Origin: Bacillota bacterium
Lineage (GTDB): Bacteria; Bacillota; SHA-98; Ch115
Direction: 5' to 3'
NCBI GenBank assembly: GCA_013178415.1
Contig: JABLXA010000005.1
Location: 71,369 to 135,368 of the forward strand
Length of the DNA: 64,000 nt
The notes beneath the pieces were generated by a model that did no database searches, was not told the DNA's origin, and was given only the letters and a program-made list of their open reading frames with translations. The translations under genes were made by a program, and so were the position numbers. Positions 12,333 through 61,779 of the stretch are shown piece by piece; within the stretch, counting starts at the first letter, position 1, and the number at the start of each line of letters is the position of its first letter.

Positions 12333-12366
12333 GCCGACCTACCTCCATAGATGATTGCGCAGCCAC

Positions 12367-13140: not shown

Positions 13141-13185
13141 ATTGGATCCCCTCCGGCCATTTCCAAAATCTCTCATTCATATTAC

Positions 13186-13215: not shown

Positions 13216-13309
13216 TTTACAGCTGTAGAGAATAGGAGTGAATCGCGTGGGGAGGCTTCCCAACTGAGGATGAGGAAGGAAAGCGGGGAAGGCGGGCAGA
13301 AGATGGGCC

Positions 13310-14011: not shown

Positions 14012-14120
14012 CGAGGGACCGATCTTCTTCACACGTTTTTTAATTCGCGAAAGGCTACGCGTAACCCATGCATAGACACGATATGCTGAATACATTTTGA
14101 TCTCCCCCCGACAATTCATG

Positions 14121-35588: not shown

Positions 35589-36152
35589 CTACCTGCGTCC
35601 CTGTGCGAGTTTATTGAAGATCACGACCCGCCCTTCCTCTCTAAACCCTATGAGCTTGGCCCCTTCCCTCGATTCTCTCAGATCATCCAACATATTTGCG
35701 ATCATTTCGTCCTGCGCCATCCGTTCCTCTTCCATCAACGCAGCCTCATGGTCTACCACGAGGTTCCTGGCGAGGACTTCATTGGCCAGGTCAATTATCA
35801 GGGAGATCTCATCGTGGGTGAGTGTCATGACGTCCCGTCGTATCGTAATGAGACAGAAATTGCCGGCCTCAGTTTTATCTACTTCAAACTGGGAAGGCTC
35901 TATATCGATGAGAGATTGATAGCTGGAAAGGCTTTCACGAAGCTTCTTCTCAAATGCATCAAGAAGCTCTTTGAACGACCTCTCTTTTTCAGGCTTACCG
36001 GCATGTTTTCTGATTATGAGAGTGAACTTGAGACACCTGCCGCGGGGATCGAATCTCACCGTTGCAATCTCGGGGTAGCGAACCAAAATGGACATGAGCA
36101 AGTTAACACTGGTTTGTGCCCGATCATCTAGTTCATGCCTCGGCCATCCCAT
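35589..36152 (-). CDS. hypothetical protein inserted between rny and ymdB
   Basis: 187 aa soluble protein with good ORF length and a tight 31-nt gap to ymdB. I recognise no family. The likely start is the internal MSILVRYPE. Confidence 0.4.
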   Translation of the reverse strand: MGWPRHELDDRAQTSVNLLMSILVRYPEIATVRFDPRGRCLKFTLIIRKHAGKPEKERSFKELLDAFEKKLRESLSSYQSLIDIEPSQFEVDKTEAGNFCLITIRRDVMTLTHDEISLIIDLANEVLARNLVVDHEAALMEEERMAQDEMIANMLDDLRESREGAKLIGFREEGRVVIFNKLAQGRR

Positions 36153-43204: not shown

Positions 43205-44707
43205 TCAACAACTGCTTATAGAGGCAAGTTCCGCTCTCACATCATCGCCTTCAAGTCTCTCACTTTCTAGCAGCTGATGCGCGAGTCTCTCGACTGCAGG
43301 CCACGATCTTATCAGGATCTGTTTCGCCCTCTGGTCGAGGTCTGCGATCATCTCACTTACTACCTCGTGCTGCAGCTTCTGAGGGACATCCTTGAAACCG
43401 ACGATTCCCAGAGGGGACATTCCTGCCGATATGATCTCCTTTGCTATATTTAGGGCATGTTCATAGTCGCCTTTTGCCCCAGTGCTTCTCTCCCCAAAGG
43501 CTATTTCCTCACATACGGCGCCTGCGAGAGCTATGACGATTTGATTCTCAAGCTCACATTTGGTGTAAAGGTATCTATCGTCCTGCTGCGCTTGACGCAT
43601 ATAGCCCATCGCGTTTCCCCTGGGTGTTACAGTGACTGATTTCACAGAACCTGCCTGCAGGGTTTCGCTCACTACTGCATGGCCTATTTCATGGTAGCTA
43701 ACGCGCTCCAACTCCGCCTGCGCTGGACGCCGGTCGAGTTTCTCTCCCAGCATGACCTTTTCAAGGGCCTCCTTGAACTCCTCCCTGCCGATCTCATCCT
43801 TGCCTTGACGCATAGCTAGAATCGCAGCCTCGTTTGTAAGGCTTTCAAGGTGAGCCCCAGAAAACCCAAAGGTTTCACGGGCGATATCCTCCAGATTCAC
43901 ATCCGCCGCAAGGGGTTTACCCCTGGTATGAATATTCAATATGGAAAGCCTGCCGTCTTTATCTGGAAGATCCGCTTTCACTACCCTATCGAATCGACCG
44001 GGGCGAAGTAAAGCAGGGTCAAGCAGATCGACCCGATTCGTGGCGCCAATGACGAGTATCCTTACCCTGTCATCAATGGTAAGCCCATCCATCTCCACCA
44101 GGAGTTGATTCAACGTCTGATCATACTCGAGGTGGCTGCTATGCTGACCACGCTTCCCGCCAAGGATCTCTATTTCATCTATGAATATGACCGCGCTGGT
44201 CTTGTGTTTCGCCTCGGCCATAGATCTCGCCTTGGCGAAGAGCTGCCGGACTCTTTGGGCCCCAACTCCTGCGTACATCTCAATGAATTCGGAGCCCGAG
44301 GCAGAAATGAATACGGAACCCATGAAACCCGCGGCAGCCTTGGCAAGGAGGGTTTTGCCCGTGCCCGGGGGTCCTGTAAGAAGGATCCCCTTGAGGGGCC
44401 GTATCCCCAGATGCTTCACCTTGTCTATATTCCTTACAAACTCCAGCGCTTCTAGCAGCTCCCTTTTTGCAACCTCCTGCCCGCCGATATCATCAAATGA
44501 AACCAGAGGGCAGTCCTTCATTTCATCTCCTGAATTCACTACCTTGAACCTCTTCCCTATAGCTCCTCCGAGCTGCATGTGCAAAAGCAAGACCGCTGCT
44601 CCGGCCAATACCAGCAATGGAACGATGTTGATCCCGCCCCAGGCTAGAAATGCCAACAACCCGAGAGCGCAACCTATGCCTATTTCACGACCATATCTTT
44701 TCACCAA
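43205..44707 (-). CDS. FtsH-like AAA+ zinc metalloprotease lacking the extracytoplasmic domain
   Basis: Two N-terminal TM helices with a very short loop. AAA module (GPPGTGKT, Walker B DEIE, SRH). M41 protease module with HEIGHAV (HEXXH) and a downstream GDYEHA third ligand. 500 aa, versus about 600+ for canonical FtsH. Confidence 0.7.
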   Translation of the reverse strand: MVKRYGREIGIGCALGLLAFLAWGGINIVPLLVLAGAAVLLLHMQLGGAIGKRFKVVNSGDEMKDCPLVSFDDIGGQEVAKRELLEALEFVRNIDKVKHLGIRPLKGILLTGPPGTGKTLLAKAAAGFMGSVFISASGSEFIEMYAGVGAQRVRQLFAKARSMAEAKHKTSAVIFIDEIEILGGKRGQHSSHLEYDQTLNQLLVEMDGLTIDDRVRILVIGATNRVDLLDPALLRPGRFDRVVKADLPDKDGRLSILNIHTRGKPLAADVNLEDIARETFGFSGAHLESLTNEAAILAMRQGKDEIGREEFKEALEKVMLGEKLDRRPAQAELERVSYHEIGHAVVSETLQAGSVKSVTVTPRGNAMGYMRQAQQDDRYLYTKCELENQIVIALAGAVCEEIAFGERSTGAKGDYEHALNIAKEIISAGMSPLGIVGFKDVPQKLQHEVVSEMIADLDQRAKQILIRSWPAVERLAHQLLESERLEGDDVRAELASISSC

Positions 44708-45336
44708 AGGCTAGAACCTCCCTTTTGCCCGGGGGAGGCGCCCACCGGAGGGCCCGACTGGCGCGCTGGCGCCAGGTACGAATATCGAGGCACCACCTGG
44801 TAAAGATGATGTCCGTCCTTTTCAAGCTGAACATACACGTTGTCTCTATCAACAGATACACCGAATTTCTGGATCCCATGACGTTCAGCCGTGGCTGTAA
44901 GCCTGGCGTTCATCATGGTGAAATCGCCCTGCATGATGGCTTCTTCTATCGCGAAATGCATCTCATGGTATACATTCATAAGCAAAGCGTCGCGATTGTC
45001 TGCGATTGAAAGCTCTACAGACCTTCCACCAGAAATCGCTTGAAGCCCATCCATCAGATCCCTGTAAGCCGCGCCAAGGTCTTCGCCCTCCTTGAGCTTG
45101 ACACTTATATCGATCTTCCCTCCGGTCTCAGAGATCTTGTAATCTGCCACGTGTGGATTCGCCTCCAGGAAACCACGTAAGGGGCGATCCACCTTGACCA
45201 TATAATTGAGATTAGACGCCGCCACCAGCAGCGTGAAGGTCAAGGCGAAGGCCAGCACGATTATTGAAATGTCGAGTCCTTTGATCTTCCTCACGGCGTA
45301 CACCCCGACGAGAACATTTGCCCAGCTAAAGGGCAC
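44701..45336 (-). CDS. hypothetical membrane-anchored protein, translationally coupled to the FtsH-like gene
   Basis: 211 aa with one N-terminal TM helix. Has a 7-nt overlap with the downstream FtsH-like ORF. No family recognised. Confidence 0.4.
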   Translation of the reverse strand: MPFSWANVLVGVYAVRKIKGLDISIIVLAFALTFTLLVAASNLNYMVKVDRPLRGFLEANPHVADYKISETGGKIDISVKLKEGEDLGAAYRDLMDGLQAISGGRSVELSIADNRDALLMNVYHEMHFAIEEAIMQGDFTMMNARLTATAERHGIQKFGVSVDRDNVYVQLEKDGHHLYQVVPRYSYLAPARQSGPPVGASPGQKGGSSLW

Positions 45337-47053: not shown

Positions 47054-48991
47054 TCACCCCTGCGGGTGGATTTCCTCATCCTTGAATAATACGCCATCAA
47101 TGAATACCTTGACGTGGATGTTGTCACCATATCCTACTACATGCTGCTCAACTCGTTCGCCAGGCGACGCAAAGGATCTGAAAACCTCGCGTTCCCCGTA
47201 GAAATCATCTACCTTTATCACTACCTCTTGCGAGGATTTTCCCTGGGGAACCGTAACTGTTACCCAGGTCACTGTCGGGGTGGTGGCCGCATCCCGTCCT
47301 TGGGTCGCAAACCCTGGTGTCGTCCCCTGAGGCCTTGAGACAACAAGATCTACACTGCTCTGCGGCTGGACCATGCTTCCTGACTCAGGGTATTGCTGCA
47401 CTACCTCACCGTCCGGCCTTCCTGCGTCCGCCTTGCTCAACTCAGAGCCTACCACGAGTCCCGCAGCCTCGATAGCCTTTTTGGCCGAATCTATATTCAT
47501 CCCCACGACATTAGGCACCTGGACGCCGGGGGGCATCGGCCCTTTACTTATCACTATATCGACGGGCAACCCCCTTTCCAAACGCTGACCAGGATCCGGC
47601 ACCTGCCCAATGATAGCGCCCGCCTGCATATCAGGGCTATAATCCTCGGTTTTCGTTCCCATAGCTAACCCCGCCCTTTCTAGGGCCAGCTGGGCTTCAC
47701 GCACAGTGAGACCAACCAGATCAGGGACAGAGACCATCTCTTTACCTTGACTTACGATCACCCTCACCTTGGTATTGATCTTTACCTTTGTCCCAGCCTT
47801 CGGGCTCTGGGAAATGATATGGTTAACCTCGACTTTATCATCATACCTGGTATCGGCCACTTCGAGCGCGAGTTGACTCTGCGGCAATAAGAGCCTTGCC
47901 TCATCCAGATTCTTGCCGGTTATATCCGGCACTTCAGTCTCGGGGACATATAGTATGGAAGGAAGCTTGAGAAGTCCAAAAACAGTCCCTGAGACCAGGA
48001 TAAGAAAGAAGGTGACCACAGCAACAGCAAGGCCGCCACGTCTCCTTGGCCTGGCCACCTGATCAGGTCTCTTGACGGCCGTGCTTCCGGACTCCAGACT
48101 TTCCCGCCACCTGCGCAGGTCTTCTCCTGTCATGATAGCTGTCGGGGCTTCATCATCTATCGAAGCAATATCAGGAGGAGTGGCAAATGGATCAAGGGCT
48201 CGTGCCATATCCTCAGCTGTCTTGAATCTCTTGGATGGATCCTTCTCCAACGCCCGCATCACCACTCGTTCCAACCCTTCAGGGACATCAGGGTTCAAGG
48301 TACGGGGTGGGACAGGCTTTTCCTGGATATGCTGAATAGCCACTGCAATAGGGCTATCTCCCCGGAAGGGCACACGCCCGCAAAGCATTTCATAGAGGAC
48401 GATCCCGAGGGAATAGATGTCTGATTGTGGTGAAACTTGTCCCCCCCTAGCCTGCTCGGGAGAAAAGTAGCTTACTGTCCCTATTACAGTGCCCGTTTCC
48501 GTAATCGTGTTGGTGCTTGCAGCATGCGCTATGCCGAAGTCAGCGACCTTGACCATGCCATCCTGAGTTACAAGGATGTTATGGGGTTTGACATCACGAT
48601 GAACGATATTGTTTCTATGGGCATGTTCCAGCGCATGACAGATCTCCCGGGCAATCCAGGCGGCATAACCGGGAGGGATGCATCCCTCCCGCTTTATGAT
48701 CTCTTTCAAGGTGGCGCCCTTCACATATTCCATCACAATATAATGCTTATCCCCATCCCGTCCAACGTCATAGATATTGACCACATTTGGATGGGACAGG
48801 CTTGCAGCCGCCCTGCCCTCACGCCGAAAACGTTCCACAAACTCTTCGTCACAAGCAAATTGCGGCCTTAATATCTTGAGTGCGACAATGCGATTGAGAA
48901 CCGAACACCTAGCTTTATAAACCTCGGCCATACCTCCTTCGCCGAGTTTCTCTAATATTGTATATCTCCCTCCTAAGATCTGACCAACCAC
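47054..48991 (-). CDS. prkC: Ser/Thr protein kinase with three PASTA domains (PrkC/PknB-type)
   Basis: Hanks kinase motifs (GEGGMAEVYKA, HRDVKPHN, DFGIA), a TM helix, three PASTA repeats and a C-terminal beta domain. Confidence 0.9.
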   Translation of the reverse strand: MVGQILGGRYTILEKLGEGGMAEVYKARCSVLNRIVALKILRPQFACDEEFVERFRREGRAAASLSHPNVVNIYDVGRDGDKHYIVMEYVKGATLKEIIKREGCIPPGYAAWIAREICHALEHAHRNNIVHRDVKPHNILVTQDGMVKVADFGIAHAASTNTITETGTVIGTVSYFSPEQARGGQVSPQSDIYSLGIVLYEMLCGRVPFRGDSPIAVAIQHIQEKPVPPRTLNPDVPEGLERVVMRALEKDPSKRFKTAEDMARALDPFATPPDIASIDDEAPTAIMTGEDLRRWRESLESGSTAVKRPDQVARPRRRGGLAVAVVTFFLILVSGTVFGLLKLPSILYVPETEVPDITGKNLDEARLLLPQSQLALEVADTRYDDKVEVNHIISQSPKAGTKVKINTKVRVIVSQGKEMVSVPDLVGLTVREAQLALERAGLAMGTKTEDYSPDMQAGAIIGQVPDPGQRLERGLPVDIVISKGPMPPGVQVPNVVGMNIDSAKKAIEAAGLVVGSELSKADAGRPDGEVVQQYPESGSMVQPQSSVDLVVSRPQGTTPGFATQGRDAATTPTVTWVTVTVPQGKSSQEVVIKVDDFYGEREVFRSFASPGERVEQHVVGYGDNIHVKVFIDGVLFKDEEIHPQG

Positions 48992-49047: not shown

Positions 49048-51786
49048 CTATGACTTTTCTAGGATGCCAACCTGCTCAAGCCAGTATTTCATCAATTCTC
49101 TAGCTATTGGGGCTGCCACGAGCCCACCTGAGCCCCCATTCTCCACCACAACGGACACCGCAATCTGTGGGTCACGGGCAGGCGCAAAACCGATGAACCA
49201 GGCATGGGGCGGACCTGCTGGATTCTGTGCCGTTCCGGTTTTGCCAGCCACCTCGATACCTGGAATCGCGGCTAGCCTCCCTGTACCTTTCGAAACCACA
49301 TCAACCATCATATCACGAATCACCCCGGTAGCGGTAATGGAAGATACCCGCCTGAAATGAGGCCCAATCTTCGCAGCCGAACCAGGCCGGCGTCCGTGTG
49401 GCACTATATCCATGATTATTCTAGGTTCTGGCATCATCCCACCCATTGAGATAGCCGCGGCCACCTGAGCCATAAACAGTGGGGTCACCAGTGTCTCTCC
49501 CTGCCCTATGCCGCTCTCGGCTATGAGACTCCTGGACATGGCCTTCTCCAAAGGGAACCTGGGAGCTGATGCCGGTATTTCTAGAGTTGGCTTCATATGG
49601 AAACCCCATGCTTTCATGGCCTCTTTGAGCGTTGCCTCACCGCATATCTCGGCGATCTCTACAAACGCGACATTGCATGAGCGGGCCAGGGCCATATCCA
49701 GGGTTACCTTTCCATGCCCCTTGCCGTTCCCGCCGGGACCAGGGCAAGATATGACCTGCCCGTCAATCATGATGCTTCCGTTACATTCAAAGGTATCATC
49801 AGCCCTGATCTTGCCTGCATCAAGAGCTGCTATCGCGATAATGGGCTTTAAAGCTGAACCAGGTGGATAGAGCCCTTGAGTAGCCCTATTCAGCAAGGCC
49901 CTCCTTGGGTCGCTCGCGAGCTCATTCCAGGTTTCATCAAGCCTGCATGGATCAAAACCAGGCTCGCTCACACAAGCAAGTATATCCCCTGTGGCTGGAA
50001 AAATGGCCACTATTGCGCCTGGCCTGCCCCGGAGCAGTCTCTCACCTAATTTTTGGAGACCGAGGTCGATGGTGAGAAGAACATCTTTTCCTCGATGCGG
50101 CGGCTGGATCAGAAAATCATCCAGGCCGAGAAGCTCCTTGTTATATGCGGCCTCTATGCCGCTTTTCCCATACCTCGAATGACTATATCCAATGACCTGC
50201 GCAAGAGACTCGGGCACGGTATATCTCCTGATAGGTTTATCTCCTATGACCTCTGAAAACGCAAGGATCTCCCCCCGGCGCGCAAGGATCGAACCCCTTA
50301 TGATCCTTTCTTCCGCGCGCGCCATTCTAGGGTTCTGTGGATCCGCGGCTAGATAGCGGAAACCTGCGCCAGCATAATAGGCCATCACGACAGCGACTAT
50401 GGCAAGTCCACCTGCAGTGAAACCCAAAAACCTCCGGCATGCCTCTTGTATCCCGGGACGGTCGTATCCAGCTTGTTCAACTGCCCCGCTACCCACGCCC
50501 CCAATCCTCGCCAAGATTCCCAGCGCCCCGAAGCATGTTACCATGGAGCTTCCGCCATAGCTGATGAAGGGAGTCGTAACTCCTGTCATAGGAATGATCC
50601 TGAAAACCCCGCCCAATATGATGAGTGTCTGCAGGGAAAATAAGACGCTTATCCCCCCGGCCAAAAGGGCCCCAAATTCGTCAGAGGAGTTCATCGCCCG
50701 GCCAATTCCTTCGGCTGCAAGATAGAAGTATGCCATTAATACCGGAGCTCCCACGATGATGCCAAACTCCTCTAGCAGCGCAGAGAATATGAAGTCCGTC
50801 TCCACTGCCGGTATGGCACGGGGCAGTCCCGCTCCTGGTCCAACTCCTGTGATGCCTCCGGCAGCGATAGCATAGAGTGATTGAATCATCTGGTAACCGG
50901 CTCCCTTGGGGTCTCTCCAGGGATTCAGCCAGACGAGAACACGGTTTCGCACGTGCCCAAAGAGGAGATAGCTCAAAACTCCTCCACAGGCTATCAAAAA
51001 CAGGCCCAGCGCCAAATAAGATGATCTGCCGCTGGCAAGGTAGAGCATCGAAAGATAGACAGCGAATAGCAACAGGGCCGTGCCGAGGTCGCGTTGGAAC
51101 ATAAGGAGCAAAAGGGAGATTCCCCATATGAGAAACATGGGTCCCACATACCCAATCTCTGGCACGAGAACCCCCATTATCCGGCGAGTAGGCGCAGATA
51201 AAAGCCTTCGCGCCTCTGTCAGATACCCGGCTAAGAATATTACCATCAGGGGTTTGGCAGGTTCCGATGGCTCAAGGCTCACCCCGAAGAGCTGGACCCA
51301 GGACTTAGCGCCTCCTATTTCGCGTCCGAAAAGAGGGCCAAGCGCCAAGAGAATGCAAGCAGCCACTCCTATGACATACCGGTATTGCTGCAGCCACGTA
51401 TAGTCTCTTGCCACGCTGGCAACGATGAAGAATACGGCCAGACCGAGGGATATCCATGATAATTGACGCCATATGAGATCCGGCCTCAATCGATATATCT
51501 CAAATAAGCTGATACCACAGAGAAATATGGCGATAGGCAGCAGCGCCTTATCCCTTACCTTGAGCACCTTTTCCTCGATGCTAAGGGCTATAAGGGATGC
51601 CAAGGCAAATATGACCGGTATTGTCCAGTGCCAGCCATCCCCCGTGGCCCCCTGGGCTATCTTTACGCAGATAAAACCTATTGTTCCGGGGAGTATGCAC
51701 AGTCCTGCCAGATTCCATCCGGCAACCTTCCCATTAGACCATAGACCCAACTTCAAGACCCCCGCGCCATCGCATATGCGGTTCAA
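49048..51786 (-). CDS. natural in-frame fusion: SEDS glycosyltransferase (RodA/FtsW-like, aa 1-430) plus class B PBP transpeptidase (aa 453-912)
   Basis: Single 912-aa ORF. The N-terminal half has SEDS hallmarks through PFISYGGSSMV. A 20-aa cytoplasmic linker (about nt 50430-50496) leads into a new TM helix (FLGFTAGGLAIVAVVMAYYAGAGF). Then comes a PBP dimer domain and a transpeptidase with SALKP (SxxK), SCN (SxN) and KTGT. Confidence 0.8.
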   Translation of the reverse strand: MNRICDGAGVLKLGLWSNGKVAGWNLAGLCILPGTIGFICVKIAQGATGDGWHWTIPVIFALASLIALSIEEKVLKVRDKALLPIAIFLCGISLFEIYRLRPDLIWRQLSWISLGLAVFFIVASVARDYTWLQQYRYVIGVAACILLALGPLFGREIGGAKSWVQLFGVSLEPSEPAKPLMVIFLAGYLTEARRLLSAPTRRIMGVLVPEIGYVGPMFLIWGISLLLLMFQRDLGTALLLFAVYLSMLYLASGRSSYLALGLFLIACGGVLSYLLFGHVRNRVLVWLNPWRDPKGAGYQMIQSLYAIAAGGITGVGPGAGLPRAIPAVETDFIFSALLEEFGIIVGAPVLMAYFYLAAEGIGRAMNSSDEFGALLAGGISVLFSLQTLIILGGVFRIIPMTGVTTPFISYGGSSMVTCFGALGILARIGGVGSGAVEQAGYDRPGIQEACRRFLGFTAGGLAIVAVVMAYYAGAGFRYLAADPQNPRMARAEERIIRGSILARRGEILAFSEVIGDKPIRRYTVPESLAQVIGYSHSRYGKSGIEAAYNKELLGLDDFLIQPPHRGKDVLLTIDLGLQKLGERLLRGRPGAIVAIFPATGDILACVSEPGFDPCRLDETWNELASDPRRALLNRATQGLYPPGSALKPIIAIAALDAGKIRADDTFECNGSIMIDGQVISCPGPGGNGKGHGKVTLDMALARSCNVAFVEIAEICGEATLKEAMKAWGFHMKPTLEIPASAPRFPLEKAMSRSLIAESGIGQGETLVTPLFMAQVAAAISMGGMMPEPRIIMDIVPHGRRPGSAAKIGPHFRRVSSITATGVIRDMMVDVVSKGTGRLAAIPGIEVAGKTGTAQNPAGPPHAWFIGFAPARDPQIAVSVVVENGGSGGLVAAPIARELMKYWLEQVGILEKS

Positions 51787-52490
51787 ACTCGGGCTATAAC
51801 TACCGTGATATTATCATGGCCTCCCCTTTCATTGGCGAGATCTACGAGAAAATCCGCAAGTTCTTGTGGATCCTCGATTCTCTTCAGAGCGCCCAGGATT
51901 TCTCCGTCAGAGACCATGCCCGTAAGCCCATCGGTGCAGAGAATTACTCGATCATCTTTCCCGATTTCCACTTTTAAGAGGTCCGGGATCAAGACGGGCT
52001 CCACCCCAAGGGCCTTTGTAATGATATTACGATGAGGATGAAATCTTGCCTCCTCTTCTGTAAGGCTTCCGCTCCTCACAAGCTCCGCGACGATTGAGTG
52101 ATCATCTGTGACCCTCTTCAAAACCCCATGAGATTCAATGTAGGCGCGGCTATCACCCACATGTCCCAAGTAAATGTAACCGTCCGTCAGCGCAGCTGCT
52201 GTGAGAGTGGTTCCCATTCCCCGCCTTTGAGGGTTACTGAGAGATAGCTCATAAACTTTAGCATTTGCATAATGAATGGCCTCATTCAGCCATCCTTCCG
52301 GATCACCAGACCAGACTGGCAGCCTGTCTTTCATCGTCTGGCAAGCTATCTGGCTTGCCACCTCCCCAGCCTGATGCCCCCCCATGCCATCAGCGACCAC
52401 CAGCAAGGATTCACTTACAAAATATGAATCTTCATTTACTTCCCTTACCCGGCCTATGTCGGAGCGCACGCCCAGTTTCATGGCACTCAC
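51783..52490 (-). CDS. prpC: PP2C-family Ser/Thr phosphatase (PrpC/Stp/PstP-like)
   Basis: MKLGVRSDIGRVREVNEDSY...VADGMGGHQAGEVAS, typical PPM motifs. Confidence 0.85.
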   Translation of the reverse strand: MSAMKLGVRSDIGRVREVNEDSYFVSESLLVVADGMGGHQAGEVASQIACQTMKDRLPVWSGDPEGWLNEAIHYANAKVYELSLSNPQRRGMGTTLTAAALTDGYIYLGHVGDSRAYIESHGVLKRVTDDHSIVAELVRSGSLTEEEARFHPHRNIITKALGVEPVLIPDLLKVEIGKDDRVILCTDGLTGMVSDGEILGALKRIEDPQELADFLVDLANERGGHDNITVVIARV

Positions 52491-52972
52491 TCCTTGAGTT
52501 CAAGCATTGTATCCCCTATCAGCAATTGATCGCCTGGTTTGAGAATGGTTCTGCGCCTGAGTCTGCGACCATTGACCAGCGTGCCATTCTTGCTGCCATT
52601 ATCCTCTATGAAGAATTTCCTACCTTTTCGGTAAAGAATGGCATGCCGCCATGACGCGAAAATATCTTTGATTACTATGTCACAGTCCGGCGCCCTACCT
52701 ATGACCATCCTGTCTGCCAAGAAAAACGTTGCGCCGGCTGGAGGATCTCCAGAGGTGCTTATTACAACGATCCTGGGCCCGGATTCCTCCCCGGCTATCC
52801 CCTCCCTGCCGGCTCCGCGCCATGTTCGTATGTGATCGGAAGCATTCTCTGAATGGAAATGGACTGACGTTCCCGTCACGCCAGCCATCACCTCGCGGGC
52901 GAGCCGCCACAAAAATGCGTATATTACGGCAATCAAGAGGAAGCGCCACGCTACCATCAGAAGGGCTAGCAT
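52487..52972 (-). CDS. FHA-domain membrane protein (FhaB/FipA-like)
   Basis: N-terminal TM helix and a C-terminal FHA domain (VIGRAPDCDIVIKD...SWRHAIL...EDNGSKNGTLVNGRRL). Confidence 0.75.
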   Translation of the reverse strand: MLALLMVAWRFLLIAVIYAFLWRLAREVMAGVTGTSVHFHSENASDHIRTWRGAGREGIAGEESGPRIVVISTSGDPPAGATFFLADRMVIGRAPDCDIVIKDIFASWRHAILYRKGRKFFIEDNGSKNGTLVNGRRLRRRTILKPGDQLLIGDTMLELKE

Positions 52973-53791
52973 TCATGATCCCTCCTGGCGCCCAACTCCA
53001 TTCCTGAATTCAAGCAAGACCCCGCCGAGTTTGATGGAATCCCCCGGGCTTAGAACATGCTCGCCCACTCGTCGTTCATTGACAAATGTGCCATTCATGC
53101 TGTTGAGGTCCCGCAAGATGAAAGCCCCTTGTCTATGCAGGATTTCCGCGTGTTCCCGCGAGACGCCAGGGTCAGGTATGACTATGTCATTGGATCTAGA
53201 ACGTCCCAGGCTGACTCGATCTTCGCTGAGCGGATACTGGCTGCCTGAGAGTTCGCCAGACATTATAATCAAGTAGGGACTATCTTCCCTTATTGCCTGC
53301 CCGGGCTGTGCGGGTGGCACACGGTTGAATTCCTTTGTGATCTCTCCCGACCTGGATGTAGCTCCATCTGCATCCACGGGCCCCCCATCTGGATACGCCC
53401 CGATCTCGAGGAGAGTTGCATCTTCCACATACGCAGGCTCTACCTTTATCTCACCGGCCTTCAGGGAGCTTTCCTCAATAAAGGAAATCTCCCGGGGCCC
53501 CACAAATGAATAGCCTCGCCTTTTTGCCTGCATTTCGATGTACGAGCAAAGCTCACGCGAGACAGTGCGCTCAAGGGGTCTGATTTTCTCGACACTGTGA
53601 GGGTGCATCATCACCTTGTAGCAATTTGGAACATATATCCTTGATACACTGACCCGTTTTTCATCTTCCATAGCTCTCATTATGTGCCGCGCAATCTCGA
53701 TAGGATGTGTGCTATAACGATCCCCGCTGTAGAAGAGCTTCCTCATGGCTTCCTCAATGCCTCGTTCTATTTTCTTGAAGAAACCACTCAT
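52973..53791 (-). CDS. FhaA-like protein (DUF3662 N-domain plus C-terminal FHA)
   Basis: N-terminal MSGFFKKIERGIEEAMRKLF... resembles the FhaA N-domain. C-terminal FHA (VSLGRSRSNDIVIPDPGVSREHAEIL...NSMNGTFVNERRV). Confidence 0.75.
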   Translation of the reverse strand: MSGFFKKIERGIEEAMRKLFYSGDRYSTHPIEIARHIMRAMEDEKRVSVSRIYVPNCYKVMMHPHSVEKIRPLERTVSRELCSYIEMQAKRRGYSFVGPREISFIEESSLKAGEIKVEPAYVEDATLLEIGAYPDGGPVDADGATSRSGEITKEFNRVPPAQPGQAIREDSPYLIIMSGELSGSQYPLSEDRVSLGRSRSNDIVIPDPGVSREHAEILHRQGAFILRDLNSMNGTFVNERRVGEHVLSPGDSIKLGGVLLEFRNGVGRQEGS

Positions 53792-55687: not shown

Positions 55688-55875
55688 CCGGGGTGCGACG
55701 GTATCCCTTCCGCCGGACGCAGCATGACCGGGGTATGGATACTCCTCCCGGCGGACGCAGCCTTGCTGCGAGGCTGCTCAGTGATCCTCGGCCCTCAGGT
55801 TATATGGCCTCGGATCAATGCCGCCGATCGGAGTATCTTAACCCCGGATCTGCCGACCACGGATCAATGCCATCC
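55688..55875. repeat. imperfect tandem direct repeats in a convergent intergenic region
   Basis: A 34-36 nt unit occurs twice at about a 40-nt period: 55688-55723 and 55728-55761 (CCGGGGT..CC(G)CCGGACGCAGC). A CGGATCAATGCC unit occurs at 55811 and 55860, with a related CCCCGGATCTGCC between them. Confidence 0.45.
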
Positions 55876-57359
55876 TAAAGCGCGATGCCTAGAAGCGCTA
55901 CCACCGCTAGGAGGATTTTGAGGAGTCCATTTTCTTTGCGAAGCCCTTGGATATCTTTAGCTACGCCGGCCTTGTATGTCTCAAAATCCGAGGAAAGCTG
56001 CCCAAGCTTGGCGTCTATGGCACCATCGGCAGAGATCCTGGCAGCGCGTTCATTCGCTATAACATCTTGCAGGCTCTTCTCAAATCCAGCAACTTGGTTT
56101 CCGATTGCATCCATCCTGCTATTCAAGTCTGCAATCTTTTGGCTCAGCTGAGTGATGCTCTCATTTGCGCTGGCTAGCTCTTTATCTAATCTTTCGCCTA
56201 GAGCGCGAGACTCGCTAGCTGTGTCGGAAAGGCCCTTTTCCAGCGCATCGACTCGACCGGACACCCCGGAAAGGTCCTGTTTGGCATTGGCTAGATCCTG
56301 GGTGACGGCCTTGAGATCTTGAGCGGTAGACTCAAGCTTGGCGGAGAGGTCGGCAAGCTGCGTGCCATGAGCATCTTGTTTTGCCTTGATGTCATCCTGC
56401 TTTGTCCTGATATCGTCTATCTGGGATGAGAGAGCGTCTGCGCGTCCAGAAAGCTCATCGACCTTCGTCGTAAGATCCCTTATGGCGGTCTCTGCCTGAT
56501 TGGCCCGGTTCGCCAACTCCTTCGCGGTTTCCTCCGTTTGATCAGCCCGGCTCGCCAGAGCCTTCGACTCCTTATCCAGGCTGACTACAGCGCCCTGGAG
56601 ATTATCTACTCTTGCCTGCGTCTCAGTGGATTTAGACTCCAAGGCATCGACGCGCCCAGTCAGACTGTTCAAGCCATCATCTAGCTGGCCTGTCTGTTCT
56701 GAAAGCTTATCCACCCGGCTGGAAAGATCAGCCTGGCCCCGGGACAACTCAGCGGACTTTGCCGCCAAAGCCCTCAGTTGATCCTCATGAGAAACATCTG
56801 CAGCGGCCATCTTGCTTTCCAGAGCGGCTATCCTCTCCTCTGCACCGGTCTTTGTGGCCTTCAACTCTTCCCTCAAAGCCTGCAGATCTTTGACTATCTT
56901 TTGAGCTTGCTTCTGTGCCTCTTGCGCATCATAGGTAGCCTTCAGGACATCCTCCTTCATGACACTCAGTACTTTGTTCTGGGACTCAATCTGTTTATCC
57001 ATATTTTCAAGCTGAGTCCCCATTGATACAAGTTCCTGACGAAATTCAGATGAAAGCTGCCTTAGAAGCTGGACATCGCCGGTGGACGCGGCAACCTTGC
57101 CGCTGGCAATCTCATTTAACATCCGCGCGATTACTACGGCCAGGGTATAGCGGTCCACTGGCTTGTTCCCCTGGAATGTCCCATCCTGATATAAAGATAT
57201 GTACCCTTTGTCCACCAGTAGCTTGACGCTTGAATATGCCCAATGATCTGGCGGGACATCCTTGATTTGTTCAGCCATGGCCATAGATCCTGCTAGAAAT
57301 ATTGTCAGCGAAATGATCAACCACATGAATATGTGCTTATGCCTTGTAAATGCTCCCAC
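55875..57359 (-). CDS. Omp-alpha-like envelope spacer protein: signal peptide, SLH domain, about 380 aa coiled coil, C-terminal TM anchor
   Basis: SLH motif IKDVPPDHWAYSSVKLLVDKGYISLYQDGTFQGNKPVDRYTLAVVIARML. A long repetitive heptad-rich region rich in L/A/E/K/Q/S/D. The extreme C-terminus LLKILLAVVALLGIAL is hydrophobic. Confidence 0.7.
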   Translation of the reverse strand: MGAFTRHKHIFMWLIISLTIFLAGSMAMAEQIKDVPPDHWAYSSVKLLVDKGYISLYQDGTFQGNKPVDRYTLAVVIARMLNEIASGKVAASTGDVQLLRQLSSEFRQELVSMGTQLENMDKQIESQNKVLSVMKEDVLKATYDAQEAQKQAQKIVKDLQALREELKATKTGAEERIAALESKMAAADVSHEDQLRALAAKSAELSRGQADLSSRVDKLSEQTGQLDDGLNSLTGRVDALESKSTETQARVDNLQGAVVSLDKESKALASRADQTEETAKELANRANQAETAIRDLTTKVDELSGRADALSSQIDDIRTKQDDIKAKQDAHGTQLADLSAKLESTAQDLKAVTQDLANAKQDLSGVSGRVDALEKGLSDTASESRALGERLDKELASANESITQLSQKIADLNSRMDAIGNQVAGFEKSLQDVIANERAARISADGAIDAKLGQLSSDFETYKAGVAKDIQGLRKENGLLKILLAVVALLGIAL

Positions 57360-57375
57360 AAAAACACTCCTCCCT

Positions 57376-59481
57376 TCATTTTGATACCATCACGACTCCA
57401 TTTATGGCTCGCACAGGCACTTCACGCCCGTCAGCATTCAGTATGCGCGCATTGCTGATGGTAATGGTGGCCTTACCCACTGTCCTGGCAAGGAAATTGA
57501 TACATGCAAAGGTTCCGAAGACGTCTGCCGGCGCAGAGAGACGCCCCCCAATTGCATGCACCTGCCCGGGGACTTCAGATATGGTCCCGCCTCTCCACTC
57601 AGAGAGTTTGTCACCCTCGACGAATACCGTGCCCCTGGACACGCTGATCATCTGCAGGATATCCGGGTCATAGGCTATATCAAGCGTCCCCTTGAGGAAG
57701 TTCTTCACATTAGTGATCCGTATGTAGACAGGGAAGAAACTGCCTGCCTTGACAGGATTCTCGGGCGGCATCACTTCGATCCTGGGCTCGAGCCGTGGCA
57801 CTGCTATCCTGTAATCCATGAAGACTCCTTCTGTATTGTACGCCTCCACCTTTACCCCGCACTCAGCAAAAGAACCAGAATCTCTGGGTTCAAGCTGCCA
57901 CACTACCTTGTAGGACTGCTGGGGGTCCAATGGCCCAAGGAACCTTGAGGCTTTCTCATGGGGAGCCGGACCCAGGAGTGCCCCCCAGGACATCCTCGCC
58001 TGGACCCCATATGCTGTAGACCCGCCCACATTCTTGATGGTAGCGTAAATCTTGAATGGATCAGGGGAAAGCCGCTGATCGACAATCGATAGTTCTCTGG
58101 GGCCGCTCAAGGTGACCTGGAATTTCGGGGCCTCAAGAATGCGCACCTCTCTCGTAACCTGGTTCGGTTCAGCATTTTCGGCCTCTACCCTGACAGAATA
58201 CGAAAGAGTCTCTCCCGGCCTTCCTTTCGGGACCACATCCCAGACTACCTGAGACAATTCTCCCACCTTGAGAATCCCTAGGTCGCGGACCGGGGATTGT
58301 CCGGATTTCAAGCTGAGTCCCTCTGGTAGAGTTATGCTGACTCGTGTGCCAATGGCATCACCCTTCCCTGAATTTTCCACATAACATACAACAGGGAATG
58401 TTTTGGGCTGATCTTTGCCCACAGCCACCTCTGCAGGGGAACTTACCCCAAGAGAGAGATCCCCTGGCGATATACTTATCCCGCCAAGGCCATAGAGAGT
58501 GACATATTCACGTGACTCTCCGGGCGCAAGAGGTTTCGGATCCCAGAATAGAGCTATGGCACTATCCGGTTCATATTCTCCTTTCCTGATGAATTCCCGT
58601 CCGGGAGAAAAGTCGAAATCCCAGACCCCATCGGCAAGGCTCCCCCAATTAGATAGATAGACTCTGTCAGGAGGCGTGGCTCCTTGGCCAGATAATGTTC
58701 CCTGGCTTGTTACGCTTGGGGCGCTAAGTGAATCAAAGGCCTGCCAAAATTCAGGAATATCCGAGACTGTATATGCCGTGTCAGAAATTATGGCATCGCC
58801 CCTCACGCGGAAAGGAGCGCCGTCATTTGCGCCCAACATGGTATCCAACAGGATACGGACCCCTATCTCCCTGGGACTTGTCCCCTCATTAGTCACTACA
58901 TACCGAATCTCTGCAGTATCAAAAAGCCCCGTGGTGCTGCTCCGGACTATCCTGAGGGATTGGATCGCCTCGATATCCTTACTGTCGCCCAGTCTACAAA
59001 TGCTAACAATTTCCTTGCCGTCGACTATATGGGGCCGTGATATCATATCACCATATAAGCCCTTCTCGCCCGCACGCTTTTTTGTGGCTCCTCCATAACA
59101 ATAATCTTTACCATCGATCCGGATGGTGGTGAATGAGGTCCATGGGACCGGTCTGCCATATATTAAAGGCTTATTGTCATCCTCTGATTTTGTGGGATCC
59201 CCGCCTGTTGTATCAAGGGCAAACCTGCACGTGGCATCATCGGTATTATTGACGAACACACGAACATAGTCGTTTGAAAGGGAAACCAGTTCCCCGCCCT
59301 GAGCGCCGGCGCCACCAGAAAAGGCATCCAGCAAGATGAATATGAAAACGAGGATAATCAAGGCCCATTTGGCTCCAGATCGCCCTCCCCTGCAGTTCCT
59401 TCCCCGGGGCCGCGATTTTGTGAGCAGGTTATCGAACCAGGCCAGATCCCCTGAGTTTAAACATATACTTGCAGCCAGCAT
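57376..59481 (-). CDS. large secreted multi-domain beta-sandwich protein with a C-terminal cohesin-like module
   Basis: N-terminal signal anchor (WALIILVFIFILLDAF). Middle CARDB/DUF11-like beta-sandwich repeats (VSITLPEGLSLKSG...YSVRVEAENA; YATIKNVGGS...). The last ~135 aa show a cohesin-like pattern (PVKAGSFFPVYIRITNV...GTLDIAYDPDIL...ITISNARILNADGREVPVRAINGVVMV). Confidence 0.5.
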   Translation of the reverse strand: MLAASICLNSGDLAWFDNLLTKSRPRGRNCRGGRSGAKWALIILVFIFILLDAFSGGAGAQGGELVSLSNDYVRVFVNNTDDATCRFALDTTGGDPTKSEDDNKPLIYGRPVPWTSFTTIRIDGKDYCYGGATKKRAGEKGLYGDMISRPHIVDGKEIVSICRLGDSKDIEAIQSLRIVRSSTTGLFDTAEIRYVVTNEGTSPREIGVRILLDTMLGANDGAPFRVRGDAIISDTAYTVSDIPEFWQAFDSLSAPSVTSQGTLSGQGATPPDRVYLSNWGSLADGVWDFDFSPGREFIRKGEYEPDSAIALFWDPKPLAPGESREYVTLYGLGGISISPGDLSLGVSSPAEVAVGKDQPKTFPVVCYVENSGKGDAIGTRVSITLPEGLSLKSGQSPVRDLGILKVGELSQVVWDVVPKGRPGETLSYSVRVEAENAEPNQVTREVRILEAPKFQVTLSGPRELSIVDQRLSPDPFKIYATIKNVGGSTAYGVQARMSWGALLGPAPHEKASRFLGPLDPQQSYKVVWQLEPRDSGSFAECGVKVEAYNTEGVFMDYRIAVPRLEPRIEVMPPENPVKAGSFFPVYIRITNVKNFLKGTLDIAYDPDILQMISVSRGTVFVEGDKLSEWRGGTISEVPGQVHAIGGRLSAPADVFGTFACINFLARTVGKATITISNARILNADGREVPVRAINGVVMVSK

Positions 59482-59500
59482 AAGCGGAATCCTCCGTCAG

Positions 59501-60586
59501 TCATTCCGAGACGAGGGTTATGCCCCCAAATTGAACTGTTACCTTTTCCTTATCGAAACTGAATGCGACCCGGAGTCGGTAGGGAACTCCTATCCCCTTG
59601 AAAGACCAGCTTCCCTGCATCGTCCTGAGTGCTATAGTATCAATCCGCGCATCGCCAGACGAACTCGCTATCTTGACCCCCAGTAATTTGCCGTTTTGAT
59701 CTATCTCGGCAAGAGCCTCGACAACTCCCCCCACACCTTCATTTTGTGCGTCCTTTGGGTAGACTGGACGGACGCGGGATATTGCAAGCCCCTCACCAGT
59801 GCCGAAATCAGCGACATCAAGGCCCCTCCCGGCCGCATCTTCTTTGCCATTGCCTGCCCCCGGAGTTGTGTTCCCATTAGCGCCGGCTTTGCCGATCCCA
59901 GAACTCGCGCCCGGGCTGCCGTTTGCCGAGCCACCCTTCGCGCCGACACCAGCGCCTCCTTGTCCGGCGCCAGCTCCCGATGCGGCGGCAGGCTTCCCTC
60001 CACCCTCAGCAGGGCCGCTCGCTATGGTCTCCTCTCCGCCAGGGCTTGTCAGCACCTCAGGCTGCTGAACACGTTGTCCCGAAACCTGCCGCTCCACTGG
60101 AGCCTTCGCTGCTACAGGCGCAGGCCCGGCCTTATGTCTTCCTTCACCCTCAAATTTCGGTTCAGGCTGTGACTCGCGCTGTGTTTCAACCCTCGGGCTT
60201 GGCTCTGGTTCTGGTTCCTGTTTCATCACCGGCTCTTGTCCCGCTGCCTGATCCATCTTCTGTTTGGATTCAGGTTTCGGAACCGGCTCTTGGGATGGCG
60301 CCGCTGGTCCGGCAACCTTCTCCCTTTTCACTACAACAGTCGTAGAACCTTTTGAGCCTGATTTTTCAGCTACCCGCGAACCTTTGACTGAAACCGCCGG
60401 CAAAGAAGATTCCGGGCTCGCCTCGGCCAGGATGGCCTCCACAGTCGCCCCATACTCCACCGGATAAATATCCACAGGTGCCCTGAATCCGACCGGCGCC
60501 AAGAATATCACCAATATATGGAGGATTATGGAGACAGCTGTAGAGATACCCATCCGCCGGCCATATCCTGACTGCAGAGATCTCAT
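59501..60586 (-). CDS. tonB: TonB-family energy transducer
   Basis: N-terminal TM helix (ISTAVSIILHILVIFLAPV) and a Pro/Glu/Lys-rich then Gly/Ala-rich linker. C-terminal TonB-like domain (VRPVYPKDAQNEGVGGVVEALAEIDQNGKLLGVKIASSSGDARID...). Follows exbD with a 6-nt gap. Confidence 0.7.
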   Translation of the reverse strand: MRSLQSGYGRRMGISTAVSIILHILVIFLAPVGFRAPVDIYPVEYGATVEAILAEASPESSLPAVSVKGSRVAEKSGSKGSTTVVVKREKVAGPAAPSQEPVPKPESKQKMDQAAGQEPVMKQEPEPEPSPRVETQRESQPEPKFEGEGRHKAGPAPVAAKAPVERQVSGQRVQQPEVLTSPGGEETIASGPAEGGGKPAAASGAGAGQGGAGVGAKGGSANGSPGASSGIGKAGANGNTTPGAGNGKEDAAGRGLDVADFGTGEGLAISRVRPVYPKDAQNEGVGGVVEALAEIDQNGKLLGVKIASSSGDARIDTIALRTMQGSWSFKGIGVPYRLRVAFSFDKEKVTVQFGGITLVSE

Positions 60587-60592
60587 CTTCCA

Positions 60593-61003
60593 TCACCTCG
60601 CAGGCCGTCGATCGGCGGCCAGGGCGATACGAGAAGCTCCAACGTCGCGGGCAGTGTCCATGACTGCTATGATATCCTCATACAATACCTGGCGGTCAGC
60701 GCGAATTATGACTGTCTCACCCGGGTCTCGTGAAACATGCTCCTTGATCTGATCCCTAAGCTCGGGAATGGTAGTCCTCCTGCCATTGAAATATAGACGC
60801 CCGGTCCGGTCTATGCTGACTATCATCTGACCTGCCCTATATGGCGCTGCAGTAACCGCTCTGGGAAGATTGATCTGCAGGCCCGTGGGAGCGGTCTTGA
60901 AACTGGTAAAAAGTATGAAGAAGACGATGAGAAAAGTCATGACATCCATCAACGGTATGAGATTAATGGCCGGCAGCCTGCGCTTGCTTCGTTGAAACCT
61001 CAA
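60593..61003 (-). CDS. exbD: ExbD/TolR biopolymer transport protein
   Basis: 136 aa with INLIPLMDVMTFLIVFFIL TM helix and a conserved Asp. A periplasmic domain follows. Confidence 0.8.
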   Translation of the reverse strand: MRFQRSKRRLPAINLIPLMDVMTFLIVFFILFTSFKTAPTGLQINLPRAVTAAPYRAGQMIVSIDRTGRLYFNGRRTTIPELRDQIKEHVSRDPGETVIIRADRQVLYEDIIAVMDTARDVGASRIALAADRRPAR

Positions 61004-61586
61004 CAGGCCTCACCTCACCTGACAGGAGATTCACCAGTTCTGACGCAAAATCGCTCATGTCCCTCGCTCGTCGATCTATCATCCCGGAGATCCAGGTATG
61101 AAGAAGGACGGTCGGAGCTGCTATCATGAGACCGGCCGCTGTCGTTATCAAAGCTTCTGCGATCCCTGCGCTCAGGGCAGCAGGTTCAAGTAGATGAGCC
61201 TGAGTCGAAAGGACTTTGAATGAATCTATTATGCCAAGGACAGTTCCGAGGATTCCGAAGAGCGGGGCCACCGCGGCAATGGCTTCAAGCCACGACAGCC
61301 CGCGTTCCATCAAGTATATCTCCCTTTCTCCAGCGGAACGCAGCTGCTCCTCGATTTCTGATCTGGGTTTGCCATACATCATCAAGCCGGTGGTCATGAG
61401 AGCACCCATCTGGCCCCTGAACTGCTCGACTGCCGCTATTGCGTCACCGATCTTTCCATGCTCAAGGGCGATCGTCACTGCCCTCAGGGCACGATCTGGA
61501 TCTGATCTTGTGCGAATTAAGTAGTAGAGTCTTTCGAGAGTGATAGCAACGGCGAAAATAGAGCATAAAAGCAGCGGGACCATCAT
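60963..61586 (-). CDS. exbB: MotA/TolQ/ExbB proton-channel protein
   Basis: Three TM helices and the TolQ/ExbB C-terminal region. The start MMVPLLLCSIFAVAITLERL at 61586 follows GGGTGGA. The track ORF (to 61754) runs through an upstream TATAAT. Confidence 0.75.
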   Translation of the reverse strand: MMVPLLLCSIFAVAITLERLYYLIRTRSDPDRALRAVTIALEHGKIGDAIAAVEQFRGQMGALMTTGLMMYGKPRSEIEEQLRSAGEREIYLMERGLSWLEAIAAVAPLFGILGTVLGIIDSFKVLSTQAHLLEPAALSAGIAEALITTAAGLMIAAPTVLLHTWISGMIDRRARDMSDFASELVNLLSGEVRPVEVSTKQAQAAGH

Positions 61587-61779
61587 GGGTCCACCCATAA
61601 TCAAAATATCCACCATATTATACATAGCATGATGCCGCAAAGGTACATGCCCCCACCTGCATGGCGACAACCGGAGCCGAATGGGGCAGCGGCCTATCTC
61701 CCCCCTCATTGACTTTCTTCGACACCCTGTCCCAAGTTCCTGCAAAAATACCAAGCTTAATAGCCAGTGGTAAACTTTT

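Follow-up and report, generated by a model that had tools for sequence, protein, structure and literature searches.

The minus strand of the window, a 64,000-nt stretch of contig JABLXA010000005.1, carries a fhaA-fha-PP2C-[rodA::pbpA]-pknB(PASTA) cassette in an uncultured, spore-forming Bacillota. Its genes stand on one strand in the order FHA, FHA, PP2C, SEDS, PbpA and PASTA kinase, with the SEDS and PbpA parts joined in one ORF (Table 1). The cassette lies between rlmN and rsgA, an interval that in Bacillota usually holds stp-prkC. The TTG start codon of the fusion overlaps the stop codon of the upstream PP2C gene (GTTTGA), and the same 4-nt start/stop overlap occurs in the relative loci L083, L086 and L087. 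A PknB-PASTA neighbour is also found at L081, L082, L084, L085 and L087, and at least one of FHA, PP2C and PknB-PASTA adjoins the fusion gene in each of L081 to L087.

Table 1. Features of the fused ORF and its neighbours, in window coordinates.
Feature	Position	Strand	Description
Fused ORF	49048..51786	(-)	912 aa, ~97 kDa; SEDS glycosyltransferase, linker, TM anchor, PbpA-type N-domain, transpeptidase
N-terminal extension (residues 1-78)	51553..51786	(-)	two predicted extra TM helices (19-45, 51-75); hydropathy, AlphaFold2
SEDS core, canonical 10-TM (residues 79-430)	50497..51552	(-)	PSE..K motif (E175, K178), ECL4 loop, D331, SYGGSS loop; PF01098
Cytoplasmic linker	50458..50496	(-)	interhelical residues 431-443; alignment columns 431-452 give 22 residues
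bPBP N-terminal TM anchor (helix 444-474)	50365..50457	(-)	preceded by R451-R452, cytoplasmic side; AlphaFold2, hydropathy
PbpA-type non-catalytic N-domain (PF21922)	50020..50364	(-)	small, replaces canonical pedestal; PF21922 above cut-off, fold match
Transpeptidase domain	49051..50019	(-)	S644xxK647 (S644 codon 49855-49857), S703xN705, K849-T-G
PP2C Ser/Thr phosphatase	51783..52490	(-)	soluble, 235 aa; translationally coupled to fusion
FHA-domain proteins, two	52487..53791	(-)	FhaA_N + FHA (52973-53791); small FHA protein (52487-52972)
PknB-type Ser/Thr kinase	47054..48991	(-)	three PASTA repeats; immediately downstream of fusion

The original prediction, made from the DNA sequence, was of one uninterrupted reading frame joining a SEDS glycosyltransferase to a class B PBP. 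The ORF indeed runs through all 912 codons with zero internal stops. According to Pfam, it comprises FTSW_RODA_SPOVE (PF01098) at residues 104–428 (237.4 bits against a cut-off of 26.4, E = 3e-70), PBP_dimer_2 (PF21922) at residues 497–559 (38.9 bits against 27, E = 1e-9) and Transpeptidase (PF00905) at residues 590–900 (194 bits, E = 4e-57). The occurrence of PF01098 and PF00905 in one ORF, with the SEDS domain N-terminal and PF21922 between them, is the architecture of a natural SEDS-bPBP fusion. The motifs named earlier were likewise found: PFISYGGSS occupies residues 406–414 of the SEDS half, and the bPBP set is complete and intact, with SxxK as S644-A-L-K647, SxN as S703-C-N705 and KTG at K849. 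The SEDS catalytic aspartate is D331 (codon 50794–50796), which aligns with D262 of Escherichia coli RodA and D255 of Thermus thermophilus RodA. In an alignment of 47 natural fusions, every protein has D331, E175, G411 and G412.

The PBP half has the arrangement of a class B PBP, namely a single N-terminal TM anchor (residues 444–474) followed by a non-catalytic domain (PF21922, residues 497–559). The canonical pedestal, PBP_dimer (PF03717), scored 18.1 bits, below its cut-off of 24.4, and the PBP2 equivalog TIGR03423 scored 284 bits against a cut-off of 455. The predicted fold of the N-domain matches those of Mycobacterium tuberculosis PbpA and of a domain from Eggerthella lenta. Judged by these sequence and fold matches, the PBP half is of the PbpA subtype rather than PBP2 or FtsI.

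A full-length structure prediction, as had been proposed, was run with AlphaFold2 on all 912 residues (mean pLDDT 89.1, pTM 0.80) and returned 12 helices, the linker and the anchor. The 10-TM SEDS protein described earlier is present as a canonical core (residues 82–430), but 12 helices precede the linker according to both AlphaFold2 and hydropathy. The difference is due to a two-helix N-terminal extension that is family-wide: its median length across the fusions is 67 aa, and two hydrophobic segments occur in 33 of 47. The full protein is thus predicted to have 13 TM helices. The in/out parity first proposed survives this recount, with the SEDS C-terminus cytoplasmic, the PBP outside and the N-terminus inside. 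In this topology, the PSE motif, ECL4 with D331 and the SYGGSS loop all fall on outside loops. By contrast, the helix that had been taken for an additional one (444–474) is the normal N-terminal anchor of the PBP itself, and is homologous to the K/R-rich N-terminus and TM segment with which the separately encoded PbpA of split relatives begins.

Based on domain content, motifs and the predicted fold, we consider the product of this ORF to be a true single-chain peptidoglycan synthase, of the RodA-PbpA type, with a probability of roughly 0.85. In such an enzyme, the chain would begin inside the cell, cross the membrane in 12 SEDS helices, pass through a cytoplasmic linker of ~13–22 residues and return through the PBP anchor, which would place the N-domain and transpeptidase outside. 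The SEDS half would build glycan strands from lipid II, D331 serving as catalytic base, and the tethered transpeptidase would crosslink stem peptides, with S644 as the nucleophile. The covalent linkage would hold the pairing at 1:1. By homology to RodA-PBP2 complexes, and in keeping with the pTM of the model, packing of the PBP's TM helix and N-domain against the SEDS core is expected, with a regulatory effect on that core. The PBP half may also be acylated by beta-lactams, as homologous domains have been crystallised with these compounds (4N1X, 4QJG, 3UPO). The fusion gene is probably co-transcribed and translationally coupled with the PP2C gene, within a cell-wall signalling cassette like the actinobacterial one, and the synthase may be under phosphorylation control.

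We infer that the cellular role of this synthase is that of an elongation-type or accessory enzyme, distinct from the divisome pair. None of the NCBIfam SEDS equivalog models reached its cut-off (FtsW, 249.2 against 337.5; RodA, 218.1 against 336.7; SpoVE, 207.3 against 448.8), and the sequence therefore does not decide between a RodA-type and an FtsW-type protein. A division enzyme resembling FtsW-FtsI, or one specific to sporulation or germination, is an unlikely identity for the fusion. In favour of such an identity, the FtsW score is slightly above that of RodA (249 vs 218 bits, both below cut-off), the organism carries spoIIGA-sigE-sigG and spoIIR, and SpoVD/SpoVE-type genes, too, typically have kinase and phosphatase genes next to them (PMC12516126). 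Against it, the SpoVE and SpoVD models score lowest, and the dcw cluster in the same window, the usual place of FtsW/FtsI or SpoVE/SpoVD, already has its own FtsW-type SEDS gene and its own bPBP gene, the latter PASTA-bearing. The fused family is also common in Coriobacteriia and Anaerolineae, which are not known to form endospores, and the PBP half here is PbpA-type.

The linker is the only sizeable dip in confidence inside the AlphaFold2 model (10-residue block mean of 56), with a shorter dip at residues 802–806. In 80 natural fusions, linker length ranges from 11 to 89 residues (median 26). An alignment of the junction in 47 proteins, all in one frame, showed a variable linker, a TM helix that is conserved and a likewise conserved PBP start motif. 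Unlike the Thr/Ser-rich linkers of the Coriobacteriia fusions, that of the window protein contains no Thr and one Ser. The absence of Thr makes it unlikely that PknB and FHA act directly on this linker as a phospho-switch.

The region of the linker and anchor also bears on whether the one ORF has two products, with a free, TM-anchored PBP made in addition to the fusion or in its place by internal initiation before the anchor or by proteolysis of the linker. We regard this as improbable. The window has a GGAGG followed, after 3 nt, by an in-frame TTG at codon 454 (nt 50425–50436), but a 3-nt spacer is poor for initiation. At the homologous site of the 57% identical relative (L081), an in-frame ATG is preceded, at a distance of 6 nt, by GGAGGAGG, which makes a canonical ribosome-binding site. 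When the DNA of four more fused relatives was compared, however, three had no internal-start motif (P0003, P0004 and P0009), and the fourth (P0008) had only a GGAGG abutting an in-frame GTG ~25 codons upstream, away from the homologous site. AGG is the commonest Arg codon (33%), and GGAGG occurs by chance in the codons of 12 of the window's 68 Arg-Arg dipeptides; Arg codon usage thus accounts for such a motif in the linker. An internally initiated product would, moreover, lack the K/R residues found ahead of the anchor in all separate PbpA proteins. As for proteolysis, cleavage affects a small proportion of engineered RodA-PBP2 fusion protein (PMC6207328). On a weaker reading, an internal ribosome-binding site may have been retained in the window gene and its 57% relative, yielding free PBP as well as the fusion.

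The preferred reading, a single-chain synthase, supposes that the two halves are joined in the organism and not in the assembly. In split relatives, the SEDS and PBP genes meet at an ATGA or GTGA stop/start overlap, or at an in-frame TAG followed by ATG. Given this 4-nt overlap or direct adjacency, a single base error, as an assembly frameshift or a lost stop, could merge adjacent rodA and pbpA genes and mimic a fusion. Such an artefact is effectively refuted by an independent assembly and by many fused relatives. Contig k127_60530 of ERZ925058, independently assembled from a biogas fermenter metagenome, contains a 2739-nt ORF of 98.5% nucleotide identity, with the same 912 codons and zero indels. 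The two ORFs differ in 41 codons, of which 22 are synonymous and 19 nonsynonymous changes, and 22 of the 41 nucleotide differences are at third codon positions. The original prediction was to fall if all close relatives had two separate genes; instead, the closest relatives are all fused, at 98%, 57% (syntenic), 44%, 42% and 40% identity. The linker also aligns in one frame across 47 proteins.

Contrary to the rarity that the original prediction had implied, fusions of this kind proved to be common: they are widespread in several bacterial phyla, annotated in databases and published. In all 120 matches listed (90%-identity clusters), both domains are in one protein; most of these are 800–990 aa long and a few are partial. 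Among 59 distinct species-level GTDB genome loci examined, 33 are fused, including all sampled Coriobacteriia loci and most sampled Anaerolineae loci. Nor does the fusion establish obligate 1:1 pairing in general, as had further been suggested: sister lineages keep two separate, translationally coupled genes. A neighbour-joining tree has at least three separate fused clades. In this rough tree, the window protein belongs to a separate fused clade with Armatimonadota-labelled and unclassified MAG proteins. The fusion probably originated when the stop codon separating two neighbouring, translationally coupled genes was lost, an event that has probably occurred several times independently in bacteria.

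The architecture is accordingly already known: it is catalogued in databases, was published in 2025 and is partly crystallised. Natural GTase(FtsW/RodA/SpoVE)-PBPA_dimer-TPase chimeras have been described as 'bifunctional class B PG synthases', with 117 in InterPro and a 931-aa protein of Senegalimassilia faecalis as an example (PMC12516126, 2025). This was the only earlier mention of natural fusions found in the literature searched. Like these chimeras, the window protein has the same three Pfam domains in the same order, a similar size, Ser/Thr kinase and phosphatase neighbours, and canonical SEDS and bPBP genes in the same genome. Unlike them, it comes from an uncultured Bacillota lineage, and it shares only 31–46% identity with the fusions from Coriobacteriia and others in the databases. 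Since 2013, the PDB has included structures that very closely match the PBP halves of such fusions. Among them are 4MNR, titled 'D,D-transpeptidase domain of peptidoglycan glycosyltransferase from Eggerthella lenta', and 4JBF, both of which correspond to PBP halves from fused ORFs of related Coriobacteriia, and structures from Atopobium parvulum have bound beta-lactams (4JBF, 4N1X, 4QJG, 4R0Q and others). The structures of the 4MNR/4JBF group share ~30% sequence identity with the window protein and cover the extracellular half only; the searches made found no full-length structure of a natural fusion.

The cassette resembles the actinobacterial locus fhaA-fhaB-pstP-rodA-pbpA-pknB (PMC6554272). 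In the M. tuberculosis locus, fhaA-fhaB-pstP-rodA-pbpA-pknA-pknB, RodA (Rv0017c) and PbpA (Rv0016c) are separate genes, whereas in the window they are fused; the window also has one kinase rather than two, and a short soluble PP2C.

The likeness to engineered RodA-PBP2 fusions that had been pointed out is borne out in detail: the order is the same, and a SEDS C-terminus is joined through a short cytoplasmic linker to the N-terminal anchor of the PBP. Such fusions include E. coli RodA-PBP2 with a (GGGS)x3 linker (PMC6207328), a RodA-PBP2 construct with a TSGSGSGS linker used for the cryo-EM structure 8TJ3 (PMC10449877) and a SpoVE-SpoVD fusion cited in PMC6207328. Engineered proteins with the SEDS half first are active in vivo and in vitro and keep both activities, which proves this topology workable (PMC6207328, PMC10449877). 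They differ from the window protein in being artificial, in containing a PBP2 with a pedestal and in having a 10-TM RodA that lacks the N-terminal extension. Class A PBPs, in which both activities also reside in one polypeptide, are functional analogues whose glycosyltransferase is a soluble GT51 domain, of a fold unrelated to the polytopic SEDS. The ORF is not itself such a GT51-transpeptidase enzyme, an identity refuted by its domain content: its NCBIfam PBP_1a_fam match (108 bits against a cut-off of 508.75) is limited to the transpeptidase (protein residues 590–903, profile positions 260–533), GT51 has no Pfam match in the protein and the N-terminal half has the polytopic SEDS fold.

The conceptual gain is small because the architecture is catalogued, published and partly crystallised, and because engineered fusions had already settled its feasibility. 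The window protein adds a further phylum-level lineage in which a SEDS protein and a class B PBP work as a 1:1 unit and can be joined permanently in a single chain. The fusion also seems to arise easily, as one mutation at a 4-nt stop/start overlap suffices. For full-length structural and biochemical work, this ~97 kDa synthase, a natural single chain from a Bacillota of anaerobic digesters, could offer a convenient target.

A Chloroflexota clade of 38 sequences, including those of Leptolinea sp. HRD-7 and a Chloroflexus sp., has fused PBPs that lost SxxK, SxN and KTG together. The literature searched held no description of this degenerate transpeptidase. It is conceivable, if doubtful, that the fusion family represents an evolutionary series in which the bPBP module is kept for a non-enzymatic role, as an allosteric activator or scaffold of the SEDS half, with the window protein as a member that is catalytically intact by its motifs. 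Covalent fusion may be what permits the transpeptidase to degenerate in Chloroflexota. If so, these proteins would be a natural demonstration of non-enzymatic bPBP retention. Despite the loss of the transpeptidase motifs, the SEDS catalytic aspartate is invariant in the Chloroflexota fusions.

The open reading frame at window positions 49048–51786 on the minus strand comprised 912 codons without an internal stop, confirming the uninterrupted frame of the original prediction. It started with a TTG that overlaps the upstream gene's stop codon (GTTTGA), and this start/stop overlap recurred in relatives. According to Pfam, the product contained SEDS glycosyltransferase, PBP_dimer_2 and transpeptidase domains, the E-values of the first and last indicating that these matches are not due to chance. 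The motifs originally read from the sequence, PFISYGGSS, SxxK, SxN and KTG, were each found in the protein. In an alignment, D331 of the fusion corresponded to D262 of E. coli RodA and D255 of T. thermophilus RodA, and was invariant across the fusion family. The non-catalytic domain was of the small PbpA type rather than the canonical pedestal, PF03717 scoring under its cut-off.

Features of the fusion protein (residues), its surroundings (window nucleotides) and members of the Chloroflexota clade
Feature	Position	Strand	Evidence or detail
N-terminal extension	51553–51786	−	~78 residues, two predicted extra TM helices
N-terminal extension helices	residues 19–45, 51–75		predicted, two
Canonical ten SEDS TM helices	residues 82–430		predicted
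FTSW_RODA_SPOVE	residues 104–428		Pfam, 237 bits, E 3e-70
PFISYGGSS	residues 406–414		SEDS motif
Short cytoplasmic segment	residues 431–443		predicted
PBP anchor helix	residues 444–474		predicted
PBP_dimer_2	residues 497–559		Pfam, 38.9 bits
Transpeptidase	residues 590–900		Pfam, 194 bits, E 4e-57
Transpeptidase motifs	S644-A-L-K647, S703-C-N705, K849-T-G		
PP2C phosphatase	51783–52490	−	235 aa, short, soluble
PknB-type kinase	47054–48991	−	single
Separate SEDS, dcw cluster	24296–25426	−	376 aa
Separate class B PBP, dcw cluster	29425–31569	−	714 aa, canonical pedestal, PASTA
spoIIR, sigG, sigE, spoIIGA	11616–15026	−	directly downstream of ftsZ
Chloroflexota clade, loci	L024:5845–8451, L051, L019–L049		L024, Leptolinea sp. 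HRD-7
Chloroflexota clade, proteins	P0014, P0015, P0019, P0020, P0024, P0026, P0048–P0117		

The natural SEDS–class B PBP fusion is real, as supported by an independent contig, relatives and domain content. The 2739-nt ORF recurred, 98.5% identical in nucleotides and in an identical gene order, on a biogas-fermenter metagenome contig (ENA ERZ925058). The two ORFs differed at 41 codons (22 synonymous, 19 nonsynonymous), with 22 of the 41 nucleotide differences at third codon positions and no indels. Comparison with relatives showed the fusion to be conserved. The NCBI MAG GCA_012842565.1 (“Firmicutes bacterium”) encoded a relative of 57% identity with all three domains in one product, downstream synteny running through PknB-PASTA, RsgA, Rpe, an unknown ORF, an AAA/M41 protease and CinA. 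Both domains likewise lay on one protein in all 120 matches listed by the protein search, mostly of 800–990 aa with a few partial. Across an alignment of 47 fusions from these matches, the junction kept its order: SEDS TM10, a linker varying in both length and sequence, a hydrophobic helix and the conserved PBP start motif YWQV..A..L...P.NPR. The same indel-free ORF in ERZ925058 and the fused relatives exclude a sequencing or assembly artefact.

An AlphaFold2 model of the full-length protein, built on this 47-sequence alignment, was confident (mean pLDDT 89.1, pTM 0.80). Inside the model, confidence fell sizeably only across the linker, to a 10-residue block mean of 56; residues 802–806 formed a shorter dip. 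Thirteen TM helices were predicted. The ten-helix SEDS core originally proposed therefore stood, but not as the total, two further N-terminal helices being predicted. The helix after the linker was also present; judging from split relatives, it is the PBP's own anchor rather than an addition. With the N-terminus inside, the model predicts that the PSE motif, ECL4 with D331, the SYGGSS loop and the PBP all lie outside, in keeping with the self-consistent topology first proposed. The N-terminal extension was a family trait (median 67 residues; two hydrophobic segments in 33 of 47 fusions), also found in split relatives with SEDS ORFs of 408–470 aa.

In Bacillota, the genes are normally ordered rlmN-stp-prkC-rsgA where the window has an fhaA-to-pknB cassette. 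On the minus strand, RlmN was followed by two FHA proteins, the first with an FhaA_N domain and the second small, then PP2C, the fusion, a PknB-type kinase carrying three PASTA repeats, and RsgA. PstP is membrane-anchored in mycobacteria, which also pair pknA with pknB, whereas the window encoded a short soluble phosphatase and one kinase. The cassette corresponds to the actinobacterial fhaA-fhaB-pstP-rodA-pbpA-pknB locus (PMC6554272). The best explanation is a single-chain RodA–PbpA-type synthase, which would be controlled by the local Ser/Thr signalling module; we infer its activities, interface and regulation.

That the ORF also yields a separate TM-anchored PBP is of low probability. A Shine-Dalgarno-like GGAGG lies 3 nt upstream of an in-frame TTG at the start of the PBP anchor (50425–50436, minus strand), and the locus of the 57% relative (L081, codons 160–164) has a canonical GGAGGAGG 6 nt upstream of an ATG at the homologous site. 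However, four other fused relatives lacked the motif at this position, and GGAGG is explicable by codon usage, as it spells 12 of the 68 Arg-Arg pairs in the window.

The single-chain synthase may serve elongation, division or a process linked to sporulation; the fusion scored under every cut-off of the NCBIfam equivalog profiles. A divisome role is argued against by the separate SEDS/class B PBP pair in a full dcw cluster (~15.2–33.5 kb; MraZ, RsmH, DivIC-like, PBP, MurE, MurF, MraY, SEDS, MurG, MurC, MurB, MurA, FtsQ, FtsA, FtsZ). In this genome, the fused pair and a split one thus lie within 30 kb. The presence of spoIIGA-sigE-sigG and spoIIR indicates an endospore-forming Bacillota. RecA shared 99% identity with one from a “Firmicutes bacterium” MAG and 75–84% with those of unclassified Bacillota, Thermincola and Limnochordales.

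The fusion is a further example of a published, fairly common architecture: 117 InterPro entries have been listed, among them a 931-aa protein of Senegalimassilia faecalis with exactly the same TPase/PBPA_dimer/GTase content, whose gene has Ser/Thr kinase and phosphatase genes as neighbours on its flanks (PMC12516126). Engineered fusions of the same SEDS-linker-PBP order are active (PMC6207328, PMC10449877). PDB entries titled as domains of “peptidoglycan glycosyltransferase” (4MNR, 4JBF/4N1X/4QJG and others) aligned to fused ORFs of an Eggerthella sp. and an Olsenella sp. over their C-terminal halves (553 and 585 bits). Based on these alignments, soluble halves of such fusions, with bound β-lactams, have most likely been available since 2013.

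Fusion in one frame was seen at 33 of 59 distinct species-level genome loci, the other 26 having two ORFs. In split loci, the SEDS stop and PBP start overlapped as ATGA or GTGA or, in locus L003, were adjacent in frame (TAG ATG), so that one point mutation or 1-nt indel suffices for fusion. The natural linker corresponded to the SEDS C-terminal tail and the K/R-rich PBP N-terminus, spanning 11–89 residues with a median of 26 (window fusion, 22). A rough neighbour-joining tree showed at least three separate fused clades; the count of independent fusion events is indicative only, because the tree is distance-based and its sampling biased to matches of a fused query. One clade, placed within split Actinomycetota, held every sampled Coriobacteriia, Collinsella aerofaciens, Olsenella and Denitrobacterium being cultured members; the second comprised most Chloroflexota; and the third joined the window protein with search matches P0003–5 and P0008–10. 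A few fused Clostridia were placed among split Thermoanaerobacterium, Thermovenabulum and Tissierella.

In the Chloroflexota clade, represented in the set analysed by 36 fused and 2 split sequences, SxxK, SxN and KTG were lost together and the SEDS catalytic Asp was invariant. The Leptolinea sp. HRD-7 transpeptidase domain scored 43 bits versus 194 in the window protein, and pairwise alignment showed both the S and the K of SxxK replaced by T; two FHA genes lay near this fusion. With this pattern, the Chloroflexota proteins resemble an active polymerase that carries a tethered pseudo-transpeptidase. A literature search found no description of this motif-less clade.

Elsewhere in the window, the stretch upstream of rlmN (55875–61754, minus strand) encoded an SLH-domain coiled-coil protein, a 701-aa cohesin-domain protein, one protein with a TonB_C domain and another of ExbB/MotA type; rsmB, fmt, def and priA are the usual genes at this place in Bacillota. 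The TonB/ExbB genes may point to a diderm envelope. Two minus-strand ORFs, of 187 aa (35589–36152) and 211 aa (44701–45336), had no Pfam match; the latter kept its position between rpe and the AAA/M41 protease gene in L081 and in a further locus, L087. The sole match in an Rfam search of the window was the PyrR binding-site RNA element RF00515 (2841–2928, minus strand), at 56.3 bits versus a gathering score of 54.
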